A DNA stretch of 64,000 bases, taken from assembly GCA_963666055.2 (NCBI GenBank), contig CAXWPH010000015.1, positions 832,001-896,000 on the forward strand, in the 5' to 3' direction. The position numbers and the translations under genes were made by a program. The stretch comes from Acidobacteriota bacterium (GTDB lineage: Bacteria; Acidobacteriota; UBA890; WLXD01). The notes beneath the pieces are model-generated. The model saw only the letters and a list, made by a program, of their open reading frames with translations, did no database searches and was not told where the DNA came from. Shown here in pieces: positions 51,845 to 63,904 of the stretch; position 1 is the stretch's first letter, and every line of letters begins with the position of its first letter.

Positions 51845-52096
51845 TCTTGAGCGGAGAAACCGTCGCTCCCTCAAATGAAACTCCCGGTCGGATGGTTAGG
51901 TGGCGACTTCATGGGTGGCCACTCCAGATCAAGGACCTTGCCACGATGATGCTCTGAGATCAGGAGCCAGGCACGAACGCATGAATGAGGCTGTTTGTGT
52001 GGAGTATCGTGGTCGGGGAGCTCAGCCAACGGCTCGGGGGCCGAGCCAGGATCACCCGCAACCGGGAAACGGGACAACTTGTATCGACAGCCAGGA

Positions 52097-54093
52097 GTGA
52101 GAGCGGCGGGCGGGTCGTTTCTCTTGTTTGCGCTGGCGGCGGCCTGGGTGGTGACATCGGGCCACTCACTCGCCGAGCAGGAGGAGGTCGAGGTGCGTCA
52201 TCCGCTCGACCCACTCACGGAGCGCGAGTACACCACCGTCAAGCGCGGGCTGAGACGCAGCGAGCATGTCGGCCCGATGGCGCGCTATCCATTGGTCACT
52301 CTCCACGAGCCAGCGAAGGCGGACGTACTGCGCTGGCAATCCGGCGAGACCATCGACCGCAAGGCGTTCGTGATCGTCAAGCAACGCCGGCGGGTCGCCG
52401 AGGCCATCGTCGATGCGCTGAGCGGAGAGGTGGTCTCGTGGACAGAGGTCGAAGGGGTGCAGCCAGGCGTGCTCATGACCGAGGAGTGGGCGATCGCCGT
52501 GGCGCTAGTCCGGCGCAACCCCGACTGGCAGGCAGCGGTCCGGGCGCGAGGGATTACCGACCTGTGGCGGGTAGTGTGCACGCCGCTGACGGTTGGCTAC
52601 TTCGGTCGCGCCGAGCGTGCTCGAAACCGACTGGCAAAGGTAATCTGCTTCGACGCGCAGGGAACGAGCAACTACTGGGGACGGCCGATTGAAGGGCTAG
52701 TTGCCACGGTCGACCTGGTCAAGCGCACCGTCGAACTGGTTGATACGGGGCCGTCCCGACGCCGCAATCGCCCGTAGACTTCGCCGGCGAGTTCGTCGGC
52801 GAGCTCCGAACGCCACCGAATCCGTTCGAGGCAACGCAGCCTCCGGGGCCGAGCTTCGAGCTCGATGGGCAGAGTGTGAGCTGGGAGAGGTGGCGTTTCC
52901 ACTTCCGCATCGATCCACGCCTGGGTCCGGTAATCTCGCTGGTGCGATACCAGGACGGCGGCAAGCTGCGGTCGATTCTGTATCAGGGCTCGCTATCGGA
53001 GCTGTTCGTTCCGTACATGGCGCCGGATGAGGGCTGGTACTTCAGAACCTACATGGACGCCGGCGAGTACGGCGTCGGCAAGCTGGCATCGCCCCTGCAA
53101 CCGAATCTGGACTGTCCGCCCGGGGCGGTCTTCTTCAATGCGGTGTTTGCCGACGACTGGGGTGACCCGTACACGACGCCACGAGCCGCTTGTCTGTTCG
53201 AGCGCAACGCCGGCGACATCGCCTGGCGGCACTACGAGTCGCTCACCGGGCGCACCGAGGTGCGCAGACGCACCGACCTGGTCTTGCGCTTTATCCCCGC
53301 GGTCGGCAACTACGACTACGTTCTCGACTGGGTGTTCCGACAGGACGGAACCCTGCAGGTGGACCTGGGGGCGACGGGGATCGCCCAGGTCAAGGCGGTG
53401 GCGAGCCGCACCATCGCCGACGACGGAGAGGGTCCAGACACCGACTACGGGCGCATGGTCGCCGCGCGCACGGTGGCGATCAACCACGACCATTTCTTCT
53501 CCTTCCGGCTCGATCTGGATGTAGACGGTACGCACAACAGCTTTCAGGTGGACCGCCTGCGTACCCAACGGCTCGAGGGTGACAGCCCACGCAAGAGCCT
53601 CTGGGTGGTGGAGCCGTCGATCGCCGCATCCGAGCAGGCCGCCAGGATGCGAATCGATCTCGAACAACCGGCACTGTGGCGGGTTATCAACCCCAACGTC
53701 CAGGGCCCAGTGGGCTACCCGGTGAGCTACGAGCTGAAGCCGCAGGCGAACGCCGTGTCGCTGCTGAAGCCGAACGATCCTCCGCAACAACGCGCCGGCT
53801 TCACCGACTTCCACCTATGGGTAACCCCTCACGACCCCGACGAGCGCTACGCGGCGGGGCTCTACCCGAACCAGAGTCCGGGTGGCCACGGGCTTCCCGA
53901 GTGGACCAGTGAGGATCGGTCGATCCTCAACACCGATCTGGTGCTCTGGTACACCCTCGGGGTGCATCATGTGGTGCGCGCCGAAGATTGGCCGGTGTTG
54001 CCGACCACGCGGAGTGGCTTCGAGCTGCGACCCTTCGACTTCTTCCCCAGGAATCCGGCTCTCGACATTTCCGAACAGGCCGAACAGGACTGA
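52097..54093 (+). CDS. Copper-containing primary amine oxidase (TynA-like); -1 frameshift near 52746-52749
   Basis: HPLDPL, GRPIEGL, YMDAGEYG, VGNYDY (TPQ), NHDHF, HVVRAEDWP; adding one G to GGGG joins ORFs 51995 and 52876. Confidence 0.9.
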
Positions 54094-54120: not shown

Positions 54121-55027
54121 ATGCATGATGAAAACAAGCGGCGGGCGAATCTGACGAGACAGCTACCGTATGCGCCGATCGCGGTAGTGTTTCTTCTGCT
54201 TGTCCTCACGGCGGGCGTGGCCCACTCGCACGACATCTGGCTTCACGCCGACAGGTTCCGACTCGATGTCGGCGACACACTGATCATCCGGCAGCTGCTC
54301 GGCGCCGAGCTCGACAGCGACCTGTCGCGACCCGAGGCGACGCAGGAACTACCGCTCATGCGGTCCGTAACCTCGCGGCTGACGATGATCACCGACCAGG
54401 GGGCGGTCGACCTGCTGGCGCAGATGCAGGATCGGCCCACTCTCATGCCGGTGATCGAGCACCGGGTCGACTTTGAGGGCCTGGCCCTGGTGACCATGGA
54501 GCACTACCCGATCTATACCGAATTCACCAACGAGGAGTTCGTCGAGTATCTGGAGCACGAAGGGGTCTACAGCGAGGAGTTCCGTACGGCCATGGGATCG
54601 AGATCGGCGCAGGCCGAGTCCTACGTCCGGACGCTCAAGTGTCTGGTGCAGGTCGGAGATGACGACGCGGACGCCATCCCGAGCGAGCTACACAAGCAGG
54701 TTCTGGGTCAGAGGATCGAGATCGTGCTGCTCCAGAACCCGTACAGGCTAGATCCTGGCGACGAGCTCGCGGTCCAGGTGCTGGCGGATGGTGTCCCGGT
54801 TCAAGGTCAGCTTGTGAACGCGTACAACGCCGGCCGGGACCTGCCGGTCTCTAGGCAGCAGGCGCACACCGACGCCGAAGGCATCGCGCGCTTCACCCTC
54901 GACGGTGCGGGGCACTGGCTGGTTCGCCTGGTCAACCTGACCTCGTGCGCCGGGCGTACCGACGGCGAAGTGCGAAGACGCCGACTGGGACAGCGCCTGG
55001 GCCGCTTACAGCTTCGAACTGGACTAG
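54121..55027 (+). CDS. DUF4198 (nickel-uptake-associated) exported protein; +1 frameshift near 54969
   Basis: Signal peptide then HDIWL; IEIVLLQNPY, TDAEGIARF, GHWLV; true tail CEDADWDSAWAAYSFELD-TAG lies in the shifted frame. Confidence 0.8.
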
Positions 55028-55767: not shown

Positions 55768-58044
55768 ATGAGCACCATGTTCTGCCGTCGCCCCGGTTCG
55801 CTAGTACGCGCTGCCATGCCGGCGCTCGTACTTGTCCTTGTAACGCTGCTCGCCATACCGGTGGATGCCCAGCAGTCGGGCGACGAGGGGGCGAAGCCGG
55901 CGGCGCACAAGCAGGAGGAGCGCAAGCCGCGGATCGACGAACGCATCATGGTGGTGGGCAGTGTCGAGAACCTCGAGATCATCCCGGGATCGGCGAGCCG
56001 GATCGAGGGCGCCGAACTGCTCCGCACTCAGGCGGCGTTCGGGGATATCCACCGGATGCTGAGGTCGGTTCCCGGGGTCAACCTCCAGGAAGAAGAGGGC
56101 TTCGGCCTGCGGCCCAACATCGGCCTGCGTGGCTCGGGCTCGGAGCGTTCCTCCCGCATCACCCTCATGGAGGACGGGGTTCTGATCGCTCCCGCACCCT
56201 ATACGGCACCCTCCGCCTATTACTTCCCCACCGCGGGCAGGATGGAAGCGATCGAGGTGCGCAAGGGCTCGAGCCAGATCAAGTTCGGGCCGCGGACGAA
56301 CGGCGGAGCCTTGAACCTGGTGTCCACGCGGGTGCCCGATGCGTTCACCGTGCGCGCCGAGCTGGGCGGCGGCAGCCACGCGACCGCCAAGGGCCGCCTG
56401 TCGGTCGGTAACAGCTCGCGCAACTGGGGCTGGATGCTCGAGACCTACCAGCTGCGCAGCGAAGGCTTCAAGCAGATCGATGGCGGCGGCGACGCGGGCT
56501 TCCACCTGGGTGACTATCTGGGGAAGCTGCGGTACCGGACAACCGGTAGCGCCGACTCCTTCCACGAGATCGAGGTCAAGCTCGGATACGTGGGGCAGCG
56601 CGGCAACCAGACCTACCTCGGCCTGACCGACGTTGACTTTCAGGCGAATCCGATGCGTCGTTACGCCGGCTCGCAGCACGACCGGATCGAGACCGAGCAT
56701 CGGCAGCTCCAGCTCCGCCACTACGGGATGTTCAGCCCGGCCATCGACCTGACCACGGTCGCCTACCGCAATGAGTTCCAGCGCAACTGGTACAAGCTGC
56801 AGAGCGTTCAGGGTGCGGGGCTCTCAAGCGTGTTCGAGAGCCCGCTGATCTACGCCGAGGAACTCGCCATCCTACGCGGCGCCGACAGCGCCCGCGACGC
56901 ACTGAAACAGCGCCACAACAACCGCCAATACTACGGGCAGGGGATCCAAAGCGTCCTGGGCCTGCGCCTCGGCAACGGCGCCACCCGCCAGCAGCTCGAG
57001 GTTGGCGTGCGCTACCACGCCGACCAAGAGGACCGGTTCCAGAGCGAGGATGGCTACCAGATGATCAGTGGGCACAAGACGCTCAGCAGCGTCGGCGCCC
57101 CTGGCAGTCAGGCGAATCGGATCGGGGACTCCAGAGCCTGGGCCGTGTTCGTGCAGGATCAGATCTCGACGGGACACTGGACGATCACTCCGGGCCTACG
57201 CTTCGAGTCCATCGACATGACGCGAACCGACTACTCGAGAACCGACCCGAATCGTACGGCGCCGACCTGGATTCGACACTCGCAGATCGACGTGCTGCTT
57301 CCCGGCGCAGGTGTCGACTACCGCATCGGACACGGCAGCAATGTATTCCTCGGTGTCCATCGAGGTTTCGCGCCCCCGGGTCCCGGGGCCGCCGACGGGG
57401 TCCGGCCCGAGACCAGCATCAACTACGAGCTCGGCTACCGGCTGCGCGGCACCCGGGCGACGGCGGGCGTGACCGGCTTCTTCAACGACTACGACAACCT
57501 GCTGGGGTCGGACACGCTCTCGAGCGGCGGCCAGGGGACCGGCGACCAGTTCAACGGTGGCGCCGCACGCGTCTGGGGTCTCGAGGCATCGGCCTCCTAC
57601 CACCTTGCGGCCGCCGGCTCGGCACTGCGAGTGCCCTTCGCACTCTCCTATACCTGGACCCGGGGGGAGTTCCGCACCAGCTTCGAGAGCGACTACGAGC
57701 CCTGGGGAAATATCGCCGCCGGTGACGAGCTCCCCTACTTGCCCGAGCATCAGCTCAACGTCTCGCTCGGGCTCCAGGGAACACGCTGGGATGCGTTCGC
57801 GTCGGTGACCTCGGGCAGCGCTATGCGGACCGAGGCGGGCCATGGGCCGATCCCGCCGCGGCGCGGGACCGACGCCTTCGCCGTCGTCGATCTGACCGCG
57901 GGGTATCGATTGAGCAGCGACGTATGGCTGCAGGCGGCGCTGCAGAACGCCCTTGCCGCCACCTACATCGTGACGCGCCGGCCGGCCGGTGTGCGGCCCG
58001 GCCTGACACGGACCTTCGTGCTCGGGCTGACCTTGTCGCGCTAA
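55768..58044 (+). CDS. TonB-dependent receptor, FecA-like
   Basis: EEEGFGLRPNIGLRG, ITLMEDGV, IEVRKGSSQI, GGALNL; C-terminal barrel; start may be 55816. Confidence 0.92.
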   Translation: MSTMFCRRPGSLVRAAMPALVLVLVTLLAIPVDAQQSGDEGAKPAAHKQEERKPRIDERIMVVGSVENLEIIPGSASRIEGAELLRTQAAFGDIHRMLRSVPGVNLQEEEGFGLRPNIGLRGSGSERSSRITLMEDGVLIAPAPYTAPSAYYFPTAGRMEAIEVRKGSSQIKFGPRTNGGALNLVSTRVPDAFTVRAELGGGSHATAKGRLSVGNSSRNWGWMLETYQLRSEGFKQIDGGGDAGFHLGDYLGKLRYRTTGSADSFHEIEVKLGYVGQRGNQTYLGLTDVDFQANPMRRYAGSQHDRIETEHRQLQLRHYGMFSPAIDLTTVAYRNEFQRNWYKLQSVQGAGLSSVFESPLIYAEELAILRGADSARDALKQRHNNRQYYGQGIQSVLGLRLGNGATRQQLEVGVRYHADQEDRFQSEDGYQMISGHKTLSSVGAPGSQANRIGDSRAWAVFVQDQISTGHWTITPGLRFESIDMTRTDYSRTDPNRTAPTWIRHSQIDVLLPGAGVDYRIGHGSNVFLGVHRGFAPPGPGAADGVRPETSINYELGYRLRGTRATAGVTGFFNDYDNLLGSDTLSSGGQGTGDQFNGGAARVWGLEASASYHLAAAGSALRVPFALSYTWTRGEFRTSFESDYEPWGNIAAGDELPYLPEHQLNVSLGLQGTRWDAFASVTSGSAMRTEAGHGPIPPRRGTDAFAVVDLTAGYRLSSDVWLQAALQNALAATYIVTRRPAGVRPGLTRTFVLGLTLSR

Positions 58045-58147: not shown

Positions 58148-58321
58148 CTAGCAGGCCGTGGTGGAAGTGTGGCGGGCCTGGCGACAGGGTCTTGCGAGGT
58201 GGAGGCAAGGAGAGAGGAGGAGGCGATGGTTACCCCATCGTTGACGAGGAACGACGCAGCATACGCGCGCAACCCCCTATCGCCCGGAGGGTTACGCCAC
58301 ACTTTCACCACGGCCTGCTAG
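58148..58321. mobile_element. 174-bp MITE with 27-bp terminal inverted repeats including CTAG
   Basis: CTAGCAGGCCGTGGTGGAAGTGTGGCG ... CGCCACACTTTCACCACGGCCTGCTAG (one mismatch); no transposase. Confidence 0.88.
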
Positions 58322-58536: not shown

Positions 58537-60096
58537 TCACTCCTTCTTCTGTTCTTCTTCCTTCTCTTCCTCTGCCTTTGTCGCGTCCAGGTGCTGTTGC
58601 TGGTCGCCATAGTGGTCGTCTATGGCGTGCTCGGATGACAACGGGCTCAGGTAATGCTTCTCAGTCAGCTCTTCCTTGTTCATCGCGAGTCCCGTCAGGC
58701 ACGCTTTGATGATATGCACGCTGTTGAGCGTAGTCCTGTAGGTCGGATCCAGTGCAGGATGCAATTCGACCAGGTCGAAACCCACCACATTGGACTCCGC
58801 ACACAGGCGGCGCACGATGGTAATCGCTTCGCGCATGGTGAGCCCGCCTGGAACCGGTGTGCCGGTAGCCACTGCGAATGCGGGATCGAGAACATCAATG
58901 TCAAAAGAGATGTGCAGCTTGCGCCCCTCTTCACTGGCCTCGGCGACAACCCGGTCAAGCACGGCATCCCAGCCCCGCCGCTCAATCTCGGCCATGGTGT
59001 GATAACGCATGCCCTGTTCCCGCATCCAATTGAAACCCGACTTGTCGGGTCCGCTCGAGCGCAGCCCGACCTGGATGTAATCCGCAGCCCGCACATGGCC
59101 TTCATTAATCAGGCGGTACACCGGGTATCCATGATTGATCAGGTGGGCGCTTTCGCCCCACCACGCATCGTAATGCGAGTCGAAGTGAATAACCGATACC
59201 TTTTCCTTGCCATAAACGTCCGCCAAGGCCGCAACATTGGGGTATTCCAATGAGTGGTCGCCGCCGACAATCATGGGTACGGCTCCCGTCTCCGCGATCT
59301 CGCGCACGATCTCGCGTACGTGGCGCATGGACCGTTCGGTGCTGTCGTTGTCTACCGCAACGTCGCCGTAGTCCACGACGGTCAGTACCTCAGATGCATT
59401 AATTTGCACATACTGGTCCTCTCCGCCCATGGCCCGGCCGCGCAGGCGAAGGTCGACGGTGGCGCGCTCACCCGAGTCGCGCCATCCCGAGCCCATGTTC
59501 AGGGGCGCGCCCAGGATGGCGACATCAACCTCACCCGCGACGAGGTCTTCCTTCGACAGCGCCAGGGGGAAACCGCCAAATGTTGGCGGACCGCGCCTGC
59601 CGCGATAGCGACCGAGCGCGACCGGTCCCGCCTCCCGCTCTGGATCCATGGATCGGGGACGCAGTAATCGCCATGCATTGAAATCGGGCGATTCGGTATT
59701 GAAGGGAATGTTGGGCAAGTCTCGTCCTTCGGTGTAGCGGCTTTGTTCCACTACCTGTTGCATGGCCTCGACCCACGCCTTTACTTCCTCCGGTGTGCGT
59801 TTCTCGAGCGCTTCAACGGCTTTTTCGGCTGGCCCGGTAAAGGCACGCGCATCGGCGCTCTTCAGAAACTCGATTTGCTCCGGCGTCAGCAATTCGAGCT
59901 TTGCCGCCACGCTGTCGGGCAGTTCAATAGGCGGCTGTTCCTCCTCCCGTGCGTCGACGGTGTCAAACGGATACGCCCGCGCACCGACGACGTGCTCCTG
60001 GGTGCCAGGCCTTTCATCCTGGGCCCAGGCGACCGGTGCAGCCGCCGTCACAAGCAAGAGCAGTGCGGCACGAATGCTGATCGAACCGAATGTCAT
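58537..60096 (-). CDS. Exported ureohydrolase (agmatinase family), metal ligands intact
   Basis: GGDHS, DSHYD, SFDID, TGTPVPGG, VELHP; signal peptide; GGAG RBS. Confidence 0.92.
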   Translation of the reverse strand: MTFGSISIRAALLLLVTAAAPVAWAQDERPGTQEHVVGARAYPFDTVDAREEEQPPIELPDSVAAKLELLTPEQIEFLKSADARAFTGPAEKAVEALEKRTPEEVKAWVEAMQQVVEQSRYTEGRDLPNIPFNTESPDFNAWRLLRPRSMDPEREAGPVALGRYRGRRGPPTFGGFPLALSKEDLVAGEVDVAILGAPLNMGSGWRDSGERATVDLRLRGRAMGGEDQYVQINASEVLTVVDYGDVAVDNDSTERSMRHVREIVREIAETGAVPMIVGGDHSLEYPNVAALADVYGKEKVSVIHFDSHYDAWWGESAHLINHGYPVYRLINEGHVRAADYIQVGLRSSGPDKSGFNWMREQGMRYHTMAEIERRGWDAVLDRVVAEASEEGRKLHISFDIDVLDPAFAVATGTPVPGGLTMREAITIVRRLCAESNVVGFDLVELHPALDPTYRTTLNSVHIIKACLTGLAMNKEELTEKHYLSPLSSEHAIDDHYGDQQQHLDATKAEEEKEEEQKKE

Positions 60097-60130
60097 AGCA
60101 ATGCTCCAATACGTGTGGGCCGGGCGCATA

Positions 60131-61522
60131 CTATCGCTGGCCATGATCGAGCGCCAAGGGATGAACGTAGTCCGGGTCGAGGCCCGCCTTGCGCACCGCG
60201 ATGCCAACCAGGCAGGCATTCAGCGCAGCATTCGCATGCATTATCGACAGTCGAGAGGAATCCAGCATCGGGGCCATGTCCGTGATTTCAAAACCGACGA
60301 TCTCTTTCGCCGCGCACACATGGCGGACTGCCTGGGTCACTTCCTCAAGACCCAAGCCATTGTGCGTTGCACGCCCAGCCGCAACCATCTCGGCAGGGTT
60401 AACGACGCTGACATCGATCGAGACGAAATAGGCGTCGGGGCCTCTGGCGACTTCCTGCAGTACCCGTTGCATAACTCTCTCGGATCCGCGTTGCCGGAAT
60501 TCAGCCATCGTGTGGTAGCGGACACCCTGGTCACGCAGCCATTGCAGTGTGTCCGCATCTACCGCGGGTCCGCGTAAGCCAACCTGGACGGTTTCGCTGC
60601 CTTCCACGATGCCCTCGTCCAACAGCAGGAAAAGCGCCTGACGGTCAGAAATCGTATGGTCACCGTTGCGCTCGGCATCTGGGTGGGCGCTGAAGTGCAG
60701 CAATCCAAAGCTCCCATTTCCGTGTACCCGGGCGACGCCACTGACGGCAGGATAGAGCAAGGACGTATCACCGCCGACCAGCATCGGGATGGCGCCGGTG
60801 CGCGCGGTTTCGGCAACCATGGCGGCAACGTGGTTGACGGTTCTTTCTGTGCTCATCTGGTCGACAGCAAAATCACCGTAGTCGACCACGGAGAGTGTTT
60901 CGAACGGCTTCACCAGGGATTGCACGTCTGGCATGGCAATGGTGTTCAGGCCACGCATTTCGCTCGGGCCGTTTTTAGCGTCGCGCCGGCCGCTGCTCGC
61001 ATTCCCTGGCACGCCGACGATCGCCACGTCCACATTGCCTGCGACGAGATCTTCCGGCCAGATGGCGACATCGGCGCCACCAAACGTAGGTACACCGGTT
61101 TTCGGAAACAGGTAACGGTGCACGCTGAACGGGCCCGGCTCACGTTCGAAATCGCGCAACAATGCCGGTGTAGGCATGGCCCCACCGAAACTCTTGGTAG
61201 TGAGGTTGAGGGGTGCCGCGCCCATGTCTCGCTCCGGGTCATAACCCATTTTGTCGGCGAGCGACATCAGGTCGTCCAGCAGAGATCGCAGGCTGTTTGC
61301 ATCACGCGTGGCGAGTTCGTGTTCGAGCTGCCGCTCCGGAATATATTTGAGTATCGCGCCTGATGTAATGAACTCGATCTGTTCATCATTCAGCACGCTC
61401 GCTTGCGCCTGCAGCTCGCCCGGTATGGACCGTTGCCCAAGCGCGGTTTCAACGGAGAGCAGCAGCAATGCCGAACAAATTGTGAGCAGAGCACGATGCG
61501 TCAACAATCGTCGAGAGATCAT
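60131..61522 (-). CDS. Exported ureohydrolase paralogue with degenerate metal site
   Basis: GGDTS, FSAHPD, SIDVS, ITDMAP replace canonical motifs; collinear with neighbour. Confidence 0.88.
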   Translation of the reverse strand: MISRRLLTHRALLTICSALLLLSVETALGQRSIPGELQAQASVLNDEQIEFITSGAILKYIPERQLEHELATRDANSLRSLLDDLMSLADKMGYDPERDMGAAPLNLTTKSFGGAMPTPALLRDFEREPGPFSVHRYLFPKTGVPTFGGADVAIWPEDLVAGNVDVAIVGVPGNASSGRRDAKNGPSEMRGLNTIAMPDVQSLVKPFETLSVVDYGDFAVDQMSTERTVNHVAAMVAETARTGAIPMLVGGDTSLLYPAVSGVARVHGNGSFGLLHFSAHPDAERNGDHTISDRQALFLLLDEGIVEGSETVQVGLRGPAVDADTLQWLRDQGVRYHTMAEFRQRGSERVMQRVLQEVARGPDAYFVSIDVSVVNPAEMVAAGRATHNGLGLEEVTQAVRHVCAAKEIVGFEITDMAPMLDSSRLSIMHANAALNACLVGIAVRKAGLDPDYVHPLALDHGQR

Positions 61523-61561
61523 ATTGTCCGCCTGACTCCAATTGATGGAATTCGAATCTTC

Positions 61562-62602
61562 TTATCGCCAGAACACCATGATGCGTTCCACGGTCCAGAT
61601 AATCGTAGTGCCACCGACGGTATAAGCCAGCGGCTGTTCAATTCTTCGCAGCCAGTCGAGCGGCTTGAGTTCCTTAACCTGTCTCGAGTTGGTACTTTCA
61701 ATAAAGCTCAGCTGTCCTATAAGCGACGTTATGATCCAGACAGTCGCGATGATGACGCCGACAAACAGAAGCTGACCAATTTCTACGCCGACATTAAACG
61801 CCAGCAGCGCGGCTGGCACTTCCGTCTGGGGGAGACCGATCTCACTCAACGCCGAGGCAAAACCAAAACCGTGTAGCAAACCAAATGATGCCGACACCAC
61901 GATGGGATAACGCCAGGTCAGCGTGTCGCGGCGCTGCAGTGCGATCTCTCGCGCCAGGAACACAATGGACAGTGCAATAACCGCCTCGATCGGAGGTATC
62001 GGCAATCGCACCAGGTCCAGGGCGGCCAGGGTCAGGGTAATGGAATGAGCGAGAGTAAAGCCGGTGATGGTGATCAGGATGCGGTGTCCGGTGCCTGCGA
62101 TCAGCACCAGGCAGGCGATAAACAACAAATGATCAATCCCACCCAGGATGTGTTCGATCCCAAATACCGTGTAGGTCCTTGCCACCTCCAAGCGCGATAG
62201 GGACTCGCCCACTACGAAGGAAGGATTGGCCGCCAGCAGTCGGGCAACGATGGTGGTGCCGTCCAGCCGCTCGATGCGCACCAGTACCTCGGTAGACGCC
62301 GTAGACAAGCCTTCGATGACAATTTCTGAGCCGGCCAGACCACCACTACTACTTATAGAATAACGTTCGATGTAGGCGCCACCGATCATAGAACCGCGGA
62401 CCGTACTGATCCTGTCAACGTCGGCCGGGAATCTAACATAGAGGCCGAGGCGTCGATCACCCAGGGCCGGCACCTTCCACAACACCTCGAAGACTTCATC
62501 ACTGGACTGTCGCAGCTGCAGAAATGCCGGGCGGTACTCGTCTGCCTGTACAGTTCCAACCGACAGGAGCATAAGAAGGGCGATGAGCAAGAATCTATTC
62601 AT
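61562..62602 (-). CDS. HupE/UreJ-family membrane protein with N-terminal periplasmic domain
   Basis: GIEHILGGIDHLLF, FTLAHSITL, FGLLHGFGFA, FNVGVEIGQL. Confidence 0.9.
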   Translation of the reverse strand: MNRFLLIALLMLLSVGTVQADEYRPAFLQLRQSSDEVFEVLWKVPALGDRRLGLYVRFPADVDRISTVRGSMIGGAYIERYSISSSGGLAGSEIVIEGLSTASTEVLVRIERLDGTTIVARLLAANPSFVVGESLSRLEVARTYTVFGIEHILGGIDHLLFIACLVLIAGTGHRILITITGFTLAHSITLTLAALDLVRLPIPPIEAVIALSIVFLAREIALQRRDTLTWRYPIVVSASFGLLHGFGFASALSEIGLPQTEVPAALLAFNVGVEIGQLLFVGVIIATVWIITSLIGQLSFIESTNSRQVKELKPLDWLRRIEQPLAYTVGGTTIIWTVERIMVFWR

Positions 62603-62615
62603 CGTCGGCCACTTC

Positions 62616-63527
62616 CTAATCCTCGCGGGAACTTGCAGCGACAGCGCTCAGGTCGGACGCAGTCGGTTCAGCAAGCGTCACAATATAACGCTCACGCAAG
62701 GCGCTATAAGAAGCTTCGTTGGTCTCTTCGCGTTTCGCAGACGTCCAATCCCGTGACACGAGATCTCGAATATCATCAAGCGGAGGAACGATGCCTTCAA
62801 CCCGTTCAGTAAGCTTGACCAGGTGTAATCCAAAGTCGGATTCAATGGGTCCCTGCCAGCTGCCGACTGGCAACGATTGTAGTCCCGCTAAAAACTGGCT
62901 TCCCATGGCACGCAGTATCTGGCGCTCATAGGCCTTGTTGAACTGCGACAGCAATAATCGATCGCCCAGCAGAGCCGTATCGATGCTGGCATTGGAGTCG
63001 TCGCCAGGCCCCGTCGTATCAGGCTGTCGCAGTTCAGCTAACAGAAAGTCTGCGTCTGCCTCAGCCGAGCTACCACGCTCGCTGACATTGAAATAGACCT
63101 GCTCAAAACTGAAACGAGTTTGCTCACGGAATCGTTCCTGATGTGTTGCCAGAAAAGCCTCCAGTTCGGCCTCAGTGGGTTCCCCCAGTCTGGCGACATC
63201 TTCGGTAAGAAATGCCAGCTTCTGTTGCAAACGCTGCCGGATGATGGGGTCGTCACGATCGAGACCCATAGCCAGCGCCTCGCGGTACATGACCTCTCCA
63301 CGAATGTGGGCCTGTAGCAGACCATCCAGTTCCTGTTCTGTGGGCGGGCGTTGCCAGTCTCTCTCGAATCCCACAATCAGCGCATCGATGTGGCCCTCGG
63401 TGATGACTATTTCTTCCAGAGGCTGGTTGCCGGAGAATCCAGCATCGGAGACCAATTGGTAAGTACCGAACATCGCCGCACCTAGCAGCAGGAAATACAA
63501 TAGGGGTTCTCGTAGAATGTTTCTCAT
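62616..63527 (-). CDS. PpiC-type peptidyl-prolyl isomerase (rotamase) protein
   Basis: LREPLLYF, YREALAMGLDRDDPIIRQRL, WQGPIESDFGLHLV. Confidence 0.88.
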   Translation of the reverse strand: MRNILREPLLYFLLLGAAMFGTYQLVSDAGFSGNQPLEEIVITEGHIDALIVGFERDWQRPPTEQELDGLLQAHIRGEVMYREALAMGLDRDDPIIRQRLQQKLAFLTEDVARLGEPTEAELEAFLATHQERFREQTRFSFEQVYFNVSERGSSAEADADFLLAELRQPDTTGPGDDSNASIDTALLGDRLLLSQFNKAYERQILRAMGSQFLAGLQSLPVGSWQGPIESDFGLHLVKLTERVEGIVPPLDDIRDLVSRDWTSAKREETNEASYSALRERYIVTLAEPTASDLSAVAASSRED

Positions 63528-63631: not shown

Positions 63632-63904
63632 GATTATTAAGACTCGAACTCGAAATTATCCAGGTAGGAAAGCAACTCGTTCAGCTTGGATGGCCGGGTA
63701 TAGGCAGAATAAAGACTGTCGCCATTCAAGTCTACGCATTCTTTGTCAGGAAATATTATCCTGTCTTGCTCCAAAACCTTCAGAAATCTCCCTAAAGTGC
63801 CACGACATTAACCAAGATTGCGATTCATTAGCCTTCCGATTAGCGACGCTCGAATTAGTTGCTATCTCAGGCCGAAGCTCGCTGCCTCCGTGCTAACCTG
63901 CTTC

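Follow-up and report, generated by a model that had tools for sequence, protein, structure and literature searches.

A predicted exported pair of intact and degenerate ureohydrolases encoded beside a PPIase-like/HupE-2 module in an Acidobacteriota genome

Results

Organisation of the locus

The window analysed here is a stretch of 64,000 nucleotides from an Acidobacteriota bacterium (GTDB lineage UBA890; WLXD01; assembly GCA_963666055.2, contig CAXWPH010000015.1, positions 832,001 to 896,000), and this study concerns a group of four genes at 58537-63527 that encodes an intact ureohydrolase (ACT), a degenerate relative of it (DEG), a HupE/UreJ-2 membrane protein (HupE-2) and a protein resembling peptidyl-prolyl isomerases (PPIase-like). 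The initial annotation had described four co-oriented genes with short gaps and recognizable arginase-fold motifs; the four minus-strand open reading frames (ORFs) and their motifs are confirmed, with intergenic gaps of 13, 39 and 34 nt (Table 1).

Table 1. Features of the ureohydrolase locus in the window
Feature	Position	Strand	Evidence
ACT, ureohydrolase, 519 aa	58537..60096	(-)	PF00491 E 2.7e-70, residue alignment
DEG, degenerate ureohydrolase paralogue, 463 aa	60131..61522	(-)	PF00491 E 2e-46, AlphaFold2 monomer
HupE/UreJ-2 membrane protein	61562..62602	(-)	HupE_UreJ_2 PF13795 E 2.1e-42
PPIase-like (parvulin-like, Rotamase_2) protein, membrane-anchored	62616..63527	(-)	PF13145 E 6.8e-12
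Conserved 139-bp upstream element, putative promoter	63696..63833	(-)	comparison with relatives

The 139-bp element precedes the PPIase-like gene in the window and lies directly before DEG in relatives. The gene order is element-PPIase-HupE-DEG-ACT in the window; L002, L040 and L043 have PPIase-HupE-element-DEG-ACT instead, and a single contig from run X1 shows element-DEG-ACT-PPIase-HupE. A promoter and terminator scan gave a signal no better than chance, and RNA-labelled runs yielded only contigs of relatives with a small word share, which does not demonstrate transcription. The local G+C content is 53-61% against 64% genome-wide, and the closest four named DEG records (87-91% identity) comprise three titled Acidobacteriota and one titled Gammaproteobacteria; this low local G+C content and the mixed phyla suggest that the locus was acquired by horizontal movement.

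The intact subunit ACT

ACT carries all six arginase-fold metal ligands (H281, D306, H308, D310, D399 and D401), as previously proposed and now confirmed by residue alignment, and keeps the catalytic and guanidino-binding set H322, T413 and E444. Judged by its PF00491 fold and six ligands, it is a catalytic-type member of the ureohydrolase superfamily. The protein also has a predicted Sec leader (residues 1-25), an N-terminal helical extension that is found in DEG as well, and an acidic C-terminal tail; its ratio of nonsynonymous to synonymous substitution rates (dN/dS) is 0.03-0.25 in 17 close pairwise comparisons.

The best sequence match of ACT in the PDB is the group of the guanidine hydrolase GdmH (7ESR/7OI1; E 8.8e-39), SpeB, GbuA and GpuA being matched with similar strength (E 4e-38 to 4e-27), and ACT falls under every NCBIfam cut-off, including that of the agmatinase SpeB equivalog TIGR01230 (141.2 versus 174.3 bits). 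Like SpeB, GbuA and GpuA, it has the canonical His/Thr/Glu guanidino-binding set; unlike them, it has about 150 extra N-terminal residues, a leader peptide and a partner gene. The six ligands, the His and the Glu are likewise conserved in GdmH and in the comammox guanidinase (9FEK). However, the guanidine-specific Thr97 and Trp305 of GdmH, which is a single-gene enzyme, align with Gly204 and Thr413 of ACT. These two residues serve as guanidinase criteria (PMC11410670). Since both are absent, assignment of ACT as a GdmH-like guanidinase was rejected, and free guanidine is an unlikely substrate.

The degenerate subunit DEG

DEG is 36% identical to ACT over 434 residues, including the roughly 110-residue N-terminal extension that follows the leader, and this identity across both core and extension indicates that the two are tandem paralogues. 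Three ligands are replaced (T253, S278 and S372) while H280, D282 and D370 are kept, and D293, R384 and D415 occupy the positions of the catalytic His, Thr and Glu; the earlier description of a full-length neighbour with three lost ligands and an altered Glu site is thus borne out. By the arginase ligand assignment, each of the two metal positions lacks two of its four protein ligands. DEG has a predicted Sec leader at residues 1-29, and its AlphaFold2 monomer consists of an alpha/beta core and four N-terminal helices (pLDDT 80.7). An ESM Atlas search with the N-terminal extension gave a top score of 0.79 and no lead.

Among 8,000 scored proteins, 803 homologues of DEG were found at E<=1e-40, the best 120 of which are 72-100% identical. 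Of nine positions checked in these 120, eight are fixed in 118-120 sequences: H280, D282, D293, R384 and D415 are invariant, position 253 is Thr in 118 and Ser in 2, and position 372 is Ser in 119. The ninth, position 278, is Ser in 108 and Asn in 12, never Asp. The dN/dS of DEG is 0.09-0.36 in 17 close pairwise comparisons. With a mean pairwise identity of 70% versus 79%, DEG changes a little more quickly than ACT, and the pairwise identities of both proteins correlate over 39 pairs with a Spearman coefficient of 0.87, a value inflated by shared ancestry.

Pairing of the two genes across genomes

In 37 of the 38 genome loci recovered via DEG, this gene immediately precedes ACT (five of these loci are cut by contig ends and one has a 0.6-kb gap), the remaining locus, L035, having two intact relatives. 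In an ACT-led metagenome search, which covered 18 of 64 parts, seven of the ten loci were orthologous and had DEG upstream in every case, the other three encoding short distant enzymes. Furthermore, the pair with DEG upstream of ACT is found in all four same-genus genomes, and a single paralogue occurs in one other of 60 relatives. The tandem of intact and degenerate copies, for which a synteny survey had been suggested, is therefore conserved. Every degenerate gene read in a locus adjoins an intact one, and ACT-led searches yielded no member of the ACT clade that lacked DEG; partnerless genes belong to other subclades. An order-level resampling added one further partnerless family gene, in G090. 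Separately, four loci (L005, L007, L008 and L016) carry an amidohydrolase-3 gene upstream of the pair, and P0139 appears by eye to join a MauE-like N-terminus to a degenerate family member, as a natural fusion or a deletion product.

Phylogeny

The genes of the metformin plasmid NZ_CP100554 (PMC11647477) served as reference, MefA and MefB being assigned to the metformin genes by operon layout, in a tree of 68 rows after thinning (24 divergent or redundant rows were dropped). MefA and MefB share 22-25% identity with ACT and DEG and cluster with each other, far from the exported family, so that orthology with MfmAB was rejected. All degenerate genes, which fall into three subtypes, form one clade (SH-aLRT 99.9 in this tree, UFBoot 100 in a further one) nested among exported intact members, the exact root of this clade being poorly supported (31). 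They have in common the changes His to Asp, Thr to Arg, last Asp to Ser and Glu to Asp, further ligands then being lost by subtype; four or five ligands remain in a second degenerate type. Most intact partners cluster with one another (support 71-99) and separately from the partnerless members. The comparison with metformin hydrolase called for by the initial annotation hence shows a separate clade and a single origin of the degenerate lineage, independent of MfmAB.

A deeper clade (P0155-P0247) comprises leader-bearing ureohydrolases with six ligands and varied residues at the catalytic His position, and represents a wider exported family, probably with different substrates. The window's genome also encodes three intact-ligand, lipoprotein-type exported ureohydrolase paralogues (G000:C3:8944-11951 and G000:C15:1258452-1259714). 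The two on C3 are in tandem, one of them frameshifted, whereas the third, on C15, is flanked by a Rieske-type oxygenase-like ORF on one side and an amidohydrolase-3 gene on the other.

Predicted export

A hydrophobic leader, scored by a heuristic (best 10-residue Kyte-Doolittle mean of at least 1.8), is present in 39/39 DEG and 39/39 ACT sequences versus 2/32 short control ureohydrolases; 19 of 19 chosen long-clade representatives also pass, and MefA and MefB have no such leader. Cleavage sites of the A-x-A/G type are seen by eye in most leaders. Both subunits are thus predicted to be exported via Sec, in agreement with the leaders initially proposed for them, and folding, assembly and metal loading would then take place in the periplasm. 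Export by Tat, or by piggy-backing on a Tat substrate, was rejected, as none of the 78 DEG and ACT leaders carries the motif S/T-R-R-x-F; the tat genes near L006, L010, L011 and L012 belong, from their ORF starts, to the insertion site.

The PPIase-like/HupE-2 module

The PPIase-like protein has an N-terminal membrane anchor and keeps a C-terminal FGLH. At the place where parvulins carry their N-terminal His motif, it apparently has EQVYF, which makes isomerase activity doubtful. It is likely a periplasmic folding helper with a degenerate-looking catalytic motif.

The HupE gene is of the HupE/UreJ-2 type, with a leader and a periplasmic N-terminal domain, and shares only 31% identity with the metformin-operon HupE over 100 residues. 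Its membrane His motifs, including H-x-x-x-G-x-D-H, are kept, and in a 24-sequence tree it groups with DUF3604-linked copies. By domain layout alone, namely a PF13795 domain behind a leader and a periplasmic domain, it is likened to Ang-1 'anglerase'-HupE/UreJ-2 proteins (PMC12537917). In these, the periplasmic domain binds Cu (dissociation constant Kd 74 nM) and Ni (Kd 220 nM), with a preference for Cu, through a His1 that is 100% conserved in the published Ang-1 set (PMC12537917). Unlike them, the predicted mature N-terminus in the window is Asp (VQA|DEYRP, cleavage site by eye) and lacks this metal-binding His.

One or both module genes occur within 2 kb of 11 of 47 pair loci (both in seven, neither in 36), 29 of the 47 having at least 2.5 kb on both sides; this count includes the PPIase genes of L026 and L027, which are below the score cut, and excludes two duplicate loci. 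The module-bearing pair loci represent about three lineages. PPIase genes are found in 6 of 37 genome loci against 0.06 expected from genomic density, kin not being independent, and also adjoin other family members (L039, L100, L109, L111 and L116). Of the four relatives in the same genus, one has an intact HupE-2 and another a split copy; the third lacks the gene, and in the fourth a contig end cuts it. Among 20 other PPIase regions, mostly best matches, eight adjoin DUF3604 and three an acyl-CoA dehydrogenase/beta-helix unit. The link between module and family is therefore real, recurring far above chance, but its absence near most pairs, its split or missing copies in relatives and its occurrence beside DUF3604 give no support to the view that the family requires it. 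It is likely an optional envelope module for folding and metal handling, shared with other exported metallohydrolases.

No HypA was found in the window's genome, which is 95.7% complete, or in 26 of 38 related genomes; among 105 neighbours there was no match to the HypA Pfam, and the single CobW/HypB/UreG match is the UreG of a urease operon. Neither a NiFe hydrogenase nor, by tblastn, DUF3604 was found in the window's genome. The six first-shell ligands are identical in Mn and Ni ureohydrolases and do not separate the two (PMC11271267, PMC11410670). Nickel is a possibility for this enzyme: we hold manganese to be an even bet, nickel clearly less probable and any other metal less probable still. 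A second PPIase-like/HupE-2 module lies beside an 854-aa ORF on the opposite strand (G000:C15:251640-255751), and in L119 and L120 the module stands behind a 670-aa exported protein with a D-x-H-x-H-T motif, a candidate metallohydrolase client.

Genomic neighbours

No single neighbour is universal, and the recurrent theme in Gamma- and Alphaproteobacteria is urea transport, urease, a TonB receptor and mau genes. Among 68 family loci, urt-like genes occur in six, urease in three (plus L094), a TonB receptor in nine, and mauBEDA, encoding a tryptophan tryptophylquinone (TTQ) amine dehydrogenase, with cytochrome c in two within the available flanks. G089 combines two pairs, urtAB..., urease, a TonB receptor, PPIase, HupE-2 and mauBEDA-cytochrome c in about 32 kb; on a single strand, L111 carries two pairs together with two TonB receptors, PPIase, HupE-2 and urt; in L030 mauB-E-D-A, cytochrome c, DEG and ACT abut; and urease directly adjoins family genes in L023, L035, L099 and L094. 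Furthermore, mauA is present in 31 of 45 family-bearing genomes versus 22 of 201 in an order-level sample, a contrast inflated by relatedness. The urt, urease, TonB and mau neighbours fit urea and a primary amine as products, formed outside the cytoplasm.

In the window itself, a copper amine oxidase gene with a leader (51995-54093, plus strand) lies 4.4 kb from the pair; an apparent frameshift near 52770 divides it into N2/N3 and catalytic ORFs, and its NYDY and His motifs are intact. A paralogue, 65% identical, at G000:C6:263499-264701 brings the number of such genes in the genome to two, and one may speculate that these oxidases could use the amine product. A DUF4198 protein with a predicted N-terminal His (54121-55000, plus strand) and a TonB-dependent receptor (55768-58044, plus strand) converge on the operon and are not conserved beside the pair in the relatives examined; Ni binding has been demonstrated for the DUF4198 family (PMC12537917). 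A non-coding repeat of about 150 bp at 58148-58297 occurs 105 times in the genome at a length of 120 nt or more, and one copy also follows the second PPIase/HupE-2 module (G000:C15:255778).

Discussion

A comparable arrangement is known from MefH/MfmAB/MetCaCb and DmgH (PDB 8RYI, 8SNF and 8X3G), which are likewise co-located tandem paralogues about one-third identical, with one six-ligand and one degenerate subunit, N-terminal extensions and a HupE/UreJ-family gene nearby. The present proteins differ from these in their identity of only 22-25%, their separate clade, their predicted export and the other residues lost, and here we infer the heteromer from the genes. Furthermore, ACT keeps the catalytic His where MefA has Asn, no HypA was found, and HupE is of the two-domain type 2. 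In three papers, MefH-beta/MfmB is an obligate metal-free partner, and heteromeric ureohydrolases are described for the metformin/dimethylguanidine clade only and termed unprecedented or unique (PMC11399263, PMC10927577, PMC11271267). No description of this family or of an exported bacterial ureohydrolase was found in the open-access literature, nor did six taxon names searched in the supplement of PMC11271267 give any sign of it among the pairs there, though figures or the supplements of the other papers may show it in a similarity network. While the intact-plus-degenerate design has been known since 2024, the present family is, as judged from its sequences, a second, independent and predicted-exported variant.

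By analogy with MefH, whose beta subunit is metal-free yet needed for solubility and activity, we give somewhat better than an even chance to a mixed oligomer that is exported and in which ACT carries out the catalysis while DEG acts as scaffold. ACT and DEG would cross the membrane via Sec and assemble in the periplasm as one mixed-subunit ureohydrolase in which two metal ions would be bound by ACT only, DEG being a metal-free scaffold whose invariant Arg384, together with Asp293/Asp415, may plug its own pocket. ACT would cut an N-alkylguanidine into urea and a primary amine, urea release from a guanidino substrate being suggested by its residues and neighbours, and the substrate would be an agmatine-like alkylguanidine rather than free guanidine. 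Agmatine, a diguanidinoalkane and methylguanidine are candidates. In Proteobacteria, a periplasmic TTQ amine dehydrogenase would take over the amine, while Urt and urease would receive the urea.

That DEG is merely a decaying duplicate without function is extremely improbable. Its slightly faster evolution is what one would expect of decay, and yet its purifying dN/dS, full length and fixed replacements refute it, which also disposes of the neutral evolution that the initial annotation had named as grounds for abandoning its proposal. A self-sufficient ACT homo-oligomer is a more serious contender, albeit an unlikely one; DEG would then be a separate periplasmic protein retained through operon linkage, such as a binder of guanidine or amine, a transient helper in folding or a mono-metal enzyme that catalyses a different reaction. 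Partnerless intact relatives exist, the retained H280, D282 and D370 with two invariant Asp amount to more pocket conservation than scaffolding alone would need, and a second degenerate type has four or five ligands. Against this stand the constant company of DEG in the ACT clade in ACT-led searches, the loss of two of four protein ligands at each metal position, by the arginase ligand assignment, and the fact that the known case with the same gene layout is an obligate heteromer.

Equally unlikely is the more specific version first put forward, namely a Ni-dependent heteromer for which the HupE-2/PPIase pair is a dedicated maturation system replacing HypAB. The module appears to have been recruited repeatedly (window lineage, L026/L027, L031/L032 with PPIase only, L039, L100, L109, L111, and L116 with PPIase only), as divergent copies (24-51% identity) in different positions, and three arrangements of the four genes are seen around a single upstream element. 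Furthermore, no HypA was found here or in most related genomes, the HupE-2 membrane motif is kept, hupE is present in the metformin operon as well, and a HupE-2 periplasmic domain does bind Ni (PMC12537917). This domain, however, preferred Cu, and the window's HupE-2 lacks His1. Moreover, 36 of 47 pair loci have neither gene nearby, HupE-2 is split or missing in two of four same-genus relatives, its occurrence beside urease can be explained as urease supply, Mn and Ni members share one set of six ligands, and an importer would presumably draw metal away from a Sec-exported apo-enzyme.

Several observations weigh against the exported, ACT-catalysed mixed oligomer and the salvage role attached to it. 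The predicted export rests on a simple hydrophobicity test. Partnerless intact members are common, so that in sister clades no dead subunit is needed for the fold to work; in Sphingomonadales the family occurs in 19 of 301 genomes, with a single match in 15 of the 19. No DEG-ACT fusion was found among 7,999 candidates, the one long match being ACT with unrelated domains, which is weak evidence. Within the flanks of the 47 pair loci, urease occurs once, urt three times and mau once, and full-length urease was detected in just 14 of 38 genomes. Searches of the window's genome gave no urease, Urt, Mau or urea carboxylase, so that the pathway deduced from Proteobacteria is missing there, and, unlike for GdmH, no guanidine riboswitch was detected in ten loci scanned. 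We propose only tentatively, and with more doubt than belief, an undescribed periplasmic guanidine-salvage pathway in which a TonB receptor would import an alkylguanidine, the exported heteromeric ureohydrolase of independent origin would split it, and a TTQ amine dehydrogenase and Urt/urease would take the products, the PPIase-like/HupE-2 pair serving in the periplasm as a general system that folds metallohydrolases exported by Sec, among them this enzyme and DUF3604, and loads them with metal (possibly Ni).

The family preserves graded stages of ligand loss in living relatives and would offer a testable route for the use of guanidine nitrogen by uncultured Gammaproteobacteria and by Sphingomonadales, for which Sphingobium algorifonticola and Novosphingobium sp. 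RL4 are cultured hosts amenable to genetics. It may also provide a first client for probing the role of the widespread PPIase-like/HupE-2 module.

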